A DNA stretch of 53,980 nucleotides, filler included, from Streblomastix strix (lineage: Eukaryota), in the NCBI GenBank assembly GCA_008636045.1. It is 2 parts of 2 records of this genome, joined end to end, with 100 filler letters (N's around TTAATTAATTAA, not from the genome) between each part and the next. Parts side by side here need not be neighbours in the genome. Positions count along the whole stretch, not along the records: positions 1 to 26,951 come from SNRW01000153.1; 1 more part is not named here. One strand, written 5' to 3'. The notes beneath the pieces are model-generated. The model saw only the letters and a program-made list of their open reading frames with translations. It had not been told where the DNA came from and made no database searches. The stretch's first letter is position 1. Each line of letters starts with the position of its first letter. Both the position numbers and the translations under genes were made by a program. Below are positions 16,035-19,000 of this stretch, one piece after another.

Positions 16035-19000
16035 ATGAGCGAGAGTGGAGATAGTTTGGAGAAGATTGTTTCATTTGCAGATAAAATAGGACAACCAGTA
16101 ATGTTGGCTCAACTTGGTCCAGTTGCATAGAAATCCTTTATATCATTTATTGGTATTCTTTTATTAATATATAAAGTCATATTATCTTTAATTTTAATAT
16201 TGATTCCACAGATAAAACAGATAAATATTATTCGTAAGTTGAAAAACGTGTGGTTGAATTAGAAAAACAGCTGAAGAATTCCAATATAAAAACTGAATCC
16301 TCTCGATATGCATTCACAGAAGAGAAACCATCAGATGAAGATGAGAGATAGGAAGACATCCAACGAATTGCGCAACTTGAGAAATAGATTCGATAATTGA
16401 AGGAATAAAATTCTGAATTGAGAAAAGAGAATCGTCTTCTAATTCGTGGATAAGGAAACTTTGGGAATATTGGAGATACAAATTAGAAATACAGTGTGAG
16501 TGAACATGCAGCTGTATTTACAGAATCATCCACTGTTCCTGCATTAGGAACAATCAATAATTTAGATGGTGACACGACTGTTAGTATAATTGATGGACCT
16601 CTGACAGAATTGAATTTTCCAATTGTTAATTAGCTTTCTGCAATTCTGACTAGATTTGAGGAGAATAGAAATATACATACCAAACCTCTTGTGCAGTTCG
16701 CTGATCTTTTTATTGAATTGGCAGAAGAAGTAAGATCTTTAGTTGCTCTGGAGCCTAAAATAATAGAAATATGATCTCCTGTTTATATATTTGGTGATAT
16801 TCATGGCAACTACAATGATCTGAGATTTTATCTTTCAAGATTCAATCCTACTGGACGATTAGGATGGTTGCCACATAGGTTACTGCAGATGAATATTTTA
16901 TTTATTTATTACTTACCCTATTATTATTCTCCTATATAAATATATATTACATTATTATAGATTGCTCTATTTAGGTGACTATGTGGACAGGTAATAAATA
17001 ATAACAATCATTTTTTAACTTAAATATTTCTATTTATTTATTTTTGTATTATTTTACATAATTAATAGAGGAGAATATTCTGTTGAAGTTATTACTCGTC
17101 TTTTTATTGACAAAATCTGCACAAGAGTATTTTATTATTAGAAATATTATATATTTTTTTAAAATTTCATTTTATTATATTGTTATATATTATTATCTTC
17201 AAATAGAATAAAGTATTTTTATTACGTGGAAATCATGAGCTTTCATATGTTAACTCACAGGTTTGAATTTATAAGAATAAATAATTCTGTTCATATCCTC
17301 AATTATTCTCAAATAATATTTATTTATTCATTTTATTATTTATTAAGGTTGAAACATATGGCAGGGGATGGTATATACACATATTCATTTTAAAACTTGT
17401 TAAAACTAATTATTATTCATTAATTTAAAAGTTTCATTATGTAATGCAAGAGACTATTTAAATAAAGAGGAGAAGATGTATTTTGGGCTTTTAATAGAGC
17501 TTTTGATTGTCTGCCATTAGCAGCTATTGTGGATAGAGAACTATTTTGTGTTCATGGGGGTATGGAAATTAACTTTAAGAAAAGAATAACATTTAAATAT
17601 TTATTCATTTCGTTTATTCATTTCATTTATTCATATAAGGAATTCCTCGACCACATCTTCCAAAACCATCAGATATTCCAAATCCAGATAAACCAATAAG
17701 ATAACCTTTAACATTCAATCCAAATACTCCAAGAGGAGGATTATGGTATAATATTAATATGAAGATGTTGAATAAGTAATTATATTCTTTTTTTTATTTT
17801 ATATTTTTTATTATTATTATATTCTTTTATTTTCATTTTCATTTTTTAGTCAAACAATCACTTCATATGCCAACTTAACAAAGAAACCACCTCACAGGTT
17901 TTATTTCTTATTTATTTGATTATTTATTTGATTTATTTTAATTAATAAGTTCTCGACCCACATCTGCAAATGTCAATCTTGCAAATACGGCCACACAAAT
18001 AAAGAAACTTCCTCCATCTTCTTCATCATCTTAATTACCATAAATATAATCATAATAATAATCACAACTTTCTTCTTCTATATCTACAAGGAATACAAAT
18101 ACAACATCTGAAATTACTAACTAATAAAATATTTAATAGAATGATGACAATAACAACGATAAAGTGAAAGATGAAAAAGAGAAAAATAATGAAGAAAAAA
18201 AGATTGAAAATTAAGAACAAAAGAATGAAGAAAAATAAGTAGAAAAGAAAGTTGATAATAAAACCAATAAAGAAAAGAATGATTAGAGTAATGATAACAA
18301 TTCCACTTCATAATCAAATTCACCTTCTTAATCATCTTAAATAAACACAAATACTAAAGAATAATAATAAATATAATCGATACCATTATAACTCAATTAG
18401 AAATTATAAATGCAATCTTAAACATCTGAGCCTAATTCTCCCAAATCTGTTTAATATGGGCAATAATTTGGAGGTGCATTCATTTTTCATTCCATTCAAT
18501 GATTCATTCATTTTATTCTTCTTATTTATTATATATTTAATTAGCTACAAACAGCACAGTTAATTCAAATTAATCAACTGTGTAATTTTAATCTTATGGT
18601 GATGAAAGATTGGATGAAATAAGATTGTTACCATCTTCACTGCCAGGTTCTAATTAGAAATTATATTTAATATATTATATATTCAAATTATTATTATTAA
18701 TAATAACATTTAAATCAATTTATTTAGGCACAATGGAATTCTCAGAATAATATTTCTTACTATCAGATATGTTATGGGCTGATCCTGCTCCATCATATAG
18801 ACAGGATGATATTGATGAAGATGGATTCTGTGAAGGTATTATATATATAAAGAGTAAAGAGAATGAATATGGAGATAATTCATTTTATTTTATTACTCTT
18901 ATATATTATCAACCTTTCATAAAGGTATTAGAGGACCAGATTCTGTAATGTTTACTGAAAAAGCTGTTGATATATTTCTTAAAAACACAGGTTATTACTA

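Follow-up and report, generated by a model that had tools for sequence, protein, structure and literature searches.

Can a codon that closes genes also be read as an amino acid within them? The question arises from a gene of Streblomastix strix, a termite-gut oxymonad protist of an amitochondriate lineage, in which an in-frame TGA stands just ahead of the catalytic motifs of a Ser/Thr phosphatase of the PPP family. The gene lies in a window of 53,980 nucleotides, by which we mean the whole stretch of DNA analyzed here, two parts of assembly GCA_008636045.1 joined end to end (Table 1). At the join (26952 to 27051), a 12-nt palindromic AT island stands between two runs of 44 N. The phosphatase gene lies ahead of this join and a carboxypeptidase gene discussed below lies behind it; a shared code, a similar composition, and the oxymonad homologs of the phosphatase assign both to one organism.

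Table 1. Coordinates of the genes and TGA codons discussed, numbered along the window
Feature	Position	Strand	Remarks
PPP-family Ser/Thr phosphatase gene, oxymonad subfamily	16035-21592	+	19 exons, 18 GT-AG introns, 1,380 codons (TAA/TAG as Gln); hand-built exon model, homologs, and motifs
Exon 2 of phosphatase gene	16212-16878	+	contains internal TGA and GDIHG
Internal TGA, phosphatase codon 227	16772-16774	+	R/R/K/R column; 3,462 coding nt upstream of terminal stop
GDIHG metal-binding motif of phosphatase	16793-16807	+	
Predicted terminal TGA of phosphatase gene	21590-21592	+	AAATAAA 8 nt behind
Terminal TGA, ribosomal protein eL18-like gene	22720-22722	+	
Terminal TGA	23319-23321	-	
Terminal TGA	27940-27942	+	
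Long low-complexity gene	29500-32660	-	about 1,050 codons, one frame; in-frame TGAs at 32219-32221, 31703-31705, 30896-30898, and 29615-29617
CCP5-like cytosolic carboxypeptidase gene (Peptidase M14)	33944-39958	+	intronless; one 2,004-codon frame, three internal TGAs, no frameshift
CCP5-like internal TGA in IYFH*ELL	35804-35806	+	Arg column in homologs
CCP5-like internal TGA after NLNRWYESE	36266-36268	+	variable column; conserved M14 sequence continues behind
CCP5-like TGA in low-complexity tail	38252-38254	+	then 567 open codons in same frame; presumed internal
Terminal TGA, CCP5-like gene	39956-39958	+	
Terminal TGA	46028-46030	+	
Terminal TGA	46182-46184	-	
Terminal TGA	48429-48431	-	

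In S. strix, TAA and TAG encode Gln and TGA closes genes. TGA ends all eight genes whose ends could be located from composition and the usual lengths of their families; the gene names eL18, CaMK-like, SUMO, PolA, SET, and 7TM-like are presumptive. The window is AT rich (GC of 0.20 to 0.35 per 2 kb), and its long frames are open only if TAA and TAG are read as Gln; TAA outnumbers CAA by 451 to 101 in the 6,458 codons of four genes. No tRNA genes were found in the window. The available part of PMC10703272 gives the GC content of S. strix as 26.6%. The published nuclear code has TAR as Gln (NCBI table 6; Keeling and Leander 2003, as cited in the accessible text of PMC13002328). It agrees with the window in these Gln codons and in TGA as the end of genes, but treats TGA as purely a stop.

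The phosphatase carries GDxHG, GDxVDRG, RGNHE, HGG, and RGHE in this order, which places it among the PPP Ser/Thr phosphatases. Its predicted layout is a coiled-coil-like N-terminal part, a catalytic domain with a low-complexity insert, and a long tail rich in Q, S, and N. With TAA and TAG read as Gln, codon 227 is the sole internal TGA of the model, and the frame around it reads VALEPKIIEI*SPVYIFGDIHGNY. Six codons were counted from the TGA to GDIHG, as the original prediction had stated, and its claim of a complete catalytic domain downstream was borne out by the intron model and by the motifs, all of which are in frame (GDIHG at codon 234, GDYVDRG at 267, RGNHE at 298, HGG at 358, DMLWADP at 643, RGHE at 694, and FSSSYY at 715). 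There is no AG in the stretch between the TGA and GDIHG; the sole in-frame GT-AG intron (40 to 130 nt) able to excise the TGA, 16696 to 16824, would take GDIHG out too; and no further Met comes in frame until codon 320. We therefore predict that the TGA cannot be skipped. Transcripts starting or splicing past the codon, a counterargument anticipated in the original prediction, would seem at the DNA level to have no suitable AG, intron, or Met at their disposal. Among annotated proteins (102 to 326 amino acids covered), none ending at this TGA was found. The last intron of the gene (20943 to 21140) contains a long (ATT)n run, the minus strand of which mimics a poly-Gln frame.

Three sequencing runs are listed for the phosphatase locus, all of DNA and from one sample. 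A 1,499-nt contig from run X1 (depth, 28) spans 15800 to 17144 and differs from the window at four positions, none of them within 16772 to 16774, so the sequencing error at 16772 that might have disposed of the TGA is not seen. As X1 may be a run from which the window was assembled, we take it as a second haplotype and a second assembler rather than as a second study. An assembly or amplification artifact is very improbable, since the phosphatase TGA recurs at that depth in a different haplotype and the differences between the window and X1 fall on silent sites, unlike errors; the TGAs of the CCP5-like gene described below rest on one assembly, which leaves the artifact some room.

Could the gene instead be a dead or dying allele? 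Nonsense changes from CGA to TGA by CpG deamination might accumulate in dispensable genes of a symbiont with a small population. No premature stop in humans is more frequent than Arg(CGA)-to-UGA, according to the available text of PMC12361112; coding CpG observed/expected (o/e) in S. strix is about 0.4; the same window holds decayed transposons and a PPP fragment with TGAs; and S. strix has at least one phosphatase paralog (KAA6388142.1) besides. Against this stands the pattern of divergence between haplotypes that share the TGA. The 18 substitutions between X1 and the window comprise 11 intronic (973 sites), 5 synonymous (718 sites), and 2 nonsynonymous (2,627 sites) changes, and the synonymous and nonsynonymous classes differ in the direction of purifying selection (Fisher test, P = 0.006). 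With the two differences of run X2 (depth, 2.2; both nonsynonymous), which were left out of the main test, P is 0.026; the X1 differences come from two haplotypes or more. The phosphatase also keeps 179 of the 201 columns that are invariant in four homologs (89%, against 80 to 97% for the homologs themselves in the same leave-one-out test) and all 13 invariant Arg columns, and its 18 introns are intact. One blemish speaks for decay: residue 719, in the FSSSNY motif, is Tyr in the window (position 19145) and Asn in X1 and all four homologs, which hints at relaxed constraint or an error. Frameshifts, lost splice sites, and neutral divergence, the marks of a pseudogene, were not found, N719Y being the one change at a conserved site. 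Judged by its sequence, the phosphatase gene would thus not be decayed. For the CCP5-like gene, decay has to be squared with 6 kb free of frameshifts. In the four genes counted, 31 CGA codons remain. We regard dead alleles as an unlikely explanation of the TGAs.

The four oxymonad homologs, one S. strix paralog (KAA6388142.1) and three proteins of Blattamonas (including Blattamonas nauphoetae KAK2957473.1), match Pfam Metallophos PF00149 and share 45 to 49% identity with the window phosphatase over 632 ungapped columns. They resemble it in the N-terminal region and the motifs; it differs in a longer Q-rich insert and tail, in Tyr for Asn in FSSSNY, and in TGA for R or K. At the TGA column the homologs have R, R, K, and R, i.e., Arg or Lys in all four, and the column is variable in distant PPPs (K, K, P, and D in the four PPP alignments shown). 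This comparison with the closest homologs had been proposed at the outset, together with the view that the column is polar and would suit Arg but not Trp, and its outcome is in keeping with that view. UGA as Trp was rejected, as conserved Trp sites use TGG and the TGA columns are Arg. Orthologs of the oxymonad phosphatase were found neither in metagenome contigs (29 distant loci) nor in viral contigs (1 distant locus) nor in prokaryote genomes (0 loci).

The gene model of the paralog KAA6388142.1 lacks about 15 conserved residues, including a Trp and an Arg, at residues ∼334 to 352, where it follows a shifted frame over 19 residues (fit at 17 of 18 positions). A gene caller dodging an in-frame TGA would give such a model, and so would an assembly indel.

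The original prediction treated the TGA as a matter of one gene. The TGA itself is real, but other genes of the window also have in-frame TGAs, which turns the question into one about the code of the organism. The second conserved gene is that for the CCP5-like carboxypeptidase, whose frame has three internal TGAs compared to 28 and 74 in the other two frames. Decay to three TGAs would take ∼122 substitutions and 1.6 to 4.5 frameshifts, for which the probability of finding no frameshift is 0.01 to 0.2, with a rough indel rate. Of 139 homologs aligned at the first TGA, 35804, 131 have Arg in its column (150 were examined, 11 of which failed the alignment filter), as do all 30 of a second, mostly insect set and human CCP5. 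The second, at 36266, falls in a column of D (48), S (42), or N (16) among 143 homologs, with R outside the eight commonest residues, and a global alignment with 15 insect homologs has S there in every one; around it the window gene lacks a conserved Pro. The public S. strix model of this gene, EZS28_001481, has 377 amino acids and four predicted introns, and 374 of its 377 residues match the window frame in five blocks. It bypasses TGA 35804 by a predicted 759-nt intron and stops at TGA 36266; the public annotation thus truncates the gene. As the record derives from the same assembly as the window, it was dropped as independent confirmation of the TGAs.

At least two conserved genes therefore carry internal TGAs, and Arg is the residue replaced at both of the well-aligned codons. 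Two of the three alignable TGAs stand at Arg columns and the third in a variable column, leaving two informative sites. If two nonsense changes fell at random, both would hit Arg codons with a probability of 0.01 to 0.02 when all codons are considered and of 0.07 to 0.08 within conserved domains; coding CpG o/e is 0.36 to 0.49, and with a 10- to 20-fold CpG mutability the probability rises to 0.10 to 0.21. TGA is the only stop, yet it stands in mid-gene in the phosphatase and the CCP5-like gene, twice at Arg columns, from which UGA would likely be Arg inside genes. We put at about even the chance that UGA in S. strix has such a dual use, likely Arg within genes and stop at their ends, with no dedicated stop codon left. 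Two informative codons in one window, together with the signs of constraint, make this a strong lead but not a result.

Several observations on the use and position of the codon bear on this reading. Internal TGA accounts for 4 of 6,458 codons in four genes, 0.04 of the expectation from composition, and the 3,074 codons of the PolA-like and SET-like genes include not one. A fully reassigned codon would be used as freely as its synonyms, but CGA (31) and AGA (165) are far commoner. This rarity is the strongest fact against a settled reassignment; it fits a sense use that is inefficient or young, but also a leaky stop or dead alleles. If UGA is Arg, it suggests inefficient decoding or a young change. 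A codon-model scan listed 15 TGAs but missed two of those in the CCP5-like gene and included terminal and wrong-strand ones, and it is no census. All four internal TGAs of the phosphatase and CCP5-like genes lie 1.7 to 4.2 kb from the gene end, although with n = 4 only. AAATAAA occurs within 100 nt behind four of eight terminal and none of four internal TGAs (background, 0.18), and as a marker of terminal versus internal TGAs it was set aside as too weak.

The strong underuse speaks for a leaky stop, a UGA far from the 3′ end that has no fixed meaning, falls to the near-cognate tRNA that prevails (Arg, Trp, Cys, or others), and persists where some full-length protein suffices. TGA 36266 lies off any Arg column, and the other internal TGAs stand mostly where the sequence is not conserved, as such leakiness would allow. 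A TGA at a near-invariant Arg, that at 35804, is harder to reconcile with it, and three TGAs in the CCP5-like gene would multiply the loss of product. Nor is a stimulatory hairpin present behind any of the four internal TGAs (z scores of −0.60 to +1.33); the contexts that follow them differ (UCU, GAA, AGU, and AAU) and show no unusual folding, unlike programmed readthrough. A leaky stop is not the probable explanation, but it deserves to be taken seriously.

Two further explanations would leave UGA itself unchanged in meaning or give it another. Editing of U to C in the mRNA would restore CGA (Arg) before translation; it would yield Arg at both informative sites, and rarity suits site-specific editing. 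Other conserved columns show no visible T-for-C pattern, however, and we know of no nuclear U-to-C editing in metamonads, so that editing appears quite improbable. Insertion of selenocysteine is a more remote prospect still, and already close to refuted. A SelB/eEFSec gene of S. strix is on record in the portion of the PMC10703272 supplement available, but the TGA columns are Arg/Lys rather than Cys, and an Rfam search returned no SECIS element in the window at the gathering score or behind the phosphatase stop at E values up to 5, though a divergent SECIS could escape it.

In-frame TGAs occur in other parts of the window as well. The long minus-strand gene at 29500 to 32660 has a fifth TGA (32447 to 32449), which is probably intronic; about 200 nt of this gene, one TGA included, recur exactly near 29125 (region 28900 to 29130), which is a duplication or a misassembly. 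A DDE_1-like transposase on the minus strand at 13120 to 14300 (E = 0.021, below the cutoff) has several TGAs in one frame, of which, judged by motifs, one is Arg-like and one is not; it is probably decayed. A KilA-N-like gene with tandem repeats at 1575 to 2600 on the plus strand (E = 1.3 × 10−4, just under the cutoff) has a TGA in frame at 1674, where the context is rich in Lys. The minus strand at 400 to 1200 holds the C-terminal part of a second PPP phosphatase, a fragment in which no N-terminal motifs were seen; its TGA at 1040 falls where the sequence is not conserved. The TGAs of the PPP fragment, the DDE_1-like and KilA-N frames, and other mobile-looking frames were not counted, as these frames may be decayed and the homologs found for them left the columns undecided. 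Also discarded was a kinase pattern that has TGA at the position of the HRD arginine: its four matches in the viral collection were all decayed repeats with many stops, and the four “viral” contigs sharing this kinase-like repeat are probably eukaryotic repeat DNA.

Nuclear codes without a dedicated stop read UGA as Trp; for Blastocrithidia, this assignment is given in an abstract. The dual-meaning codes of this kind reported in the consulted parts of PMC11687900, PMC12153298, and PMC6394959 are those of Condylostoma, Karyorelictea, Plagiopyla, Blastocrithidia, and Amoebophrya sp. ex Karlodinium. As far as these sources go, they share with our proposal that one codon is both sense and stop and that all three stops are sense somewhere. 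They differ in that their UGA is Trp and common, whereas that of S. strix aligns to Arg, is rare, and belongs to a different supergroup. The nuclear UGA reassignments listed in the available text of PMC11687900 are to Cys or Trp. Arg is the reported meaning of UGA in organelles, according to the parts of the papers accessible: in the plastids of Trentepohliales (PMC8692980; accepted in PMC12574857), where UGA also ends genes, and in the mitochondrion of Craticula vanensis, where UGA makes up almost a third of Arg codons, with Oikopleuridae mitochondria also cited (PMC13672107). In these cases, as far as described there, and in S. strix, in-frame UGA at conserved Arg columns was recognized from alignments. 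The chemistry thus has precedent, but organelles use bacterial-type release factors, while the S. strix case is nuclear and depends on eRF1. Our literature search, which covered few subscription papers and most matches by listing, returned no nuclear UGA as Arg and no such report for Streblomastix; UGA or TGA is mentioned 0 times in the accessible text of PMC13002328 (2026), and the passages of PMC10703272 available, with 11 supplements, contain no mention of the genetic code, stop codons, or in-frame stops.

We propose the following scheme, to which we would give an even prospect of being right. The nuclear code of S. strix would have no dedicated stop, with UAA and UAG as Gln and UGA as either Arg or stop, depending on position; one and the same C-to-U drift at the first position (of CAA, CAG, and CGA) would have claimed all three stops. 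It would be the first nuclear case of UGA as Arg, and Metamonada would gain their first code of this kind; still early and little used, it would have been masked in a published genome by truncated gene models. Internal TGAs would have arisen from CGA by C-to-T drift at the first position, as TAA and TAG did from CAA and CAG. UGA could then be read by a tRNA-Arg, either a UCA suppressor or tRNA-Arg(UCG) with a G:U pair at the first codon position. By analogy with the ciliate and trypanosomatid cases, and as proposed for Condylostoma and karyorelict ciliates, this tRNA may outcompete an eRF1 that is weakened when the poly(A) tail is distant, whereas UGA near the mRNA end would still stop translation, and the phosphatase and CCP5-like genes would be translated to full length.

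If this is true, UGA has a new meaning in nuclear genes, and a code free of dedicated stops has had an independent origin outside ciliates, trypanosomatids, and syndinians. With usage so low, the code would give a rare view of codon reassignment in its “ambiguous intermediate” stage. Of the 56,706 S. strix gene models given in Table 1 of PMC10703272, some would be truncated or misspliced like the CCP5 model, and such miscalled models would bear on claims of gene absence for this amitochondriate oxymonad lineage.
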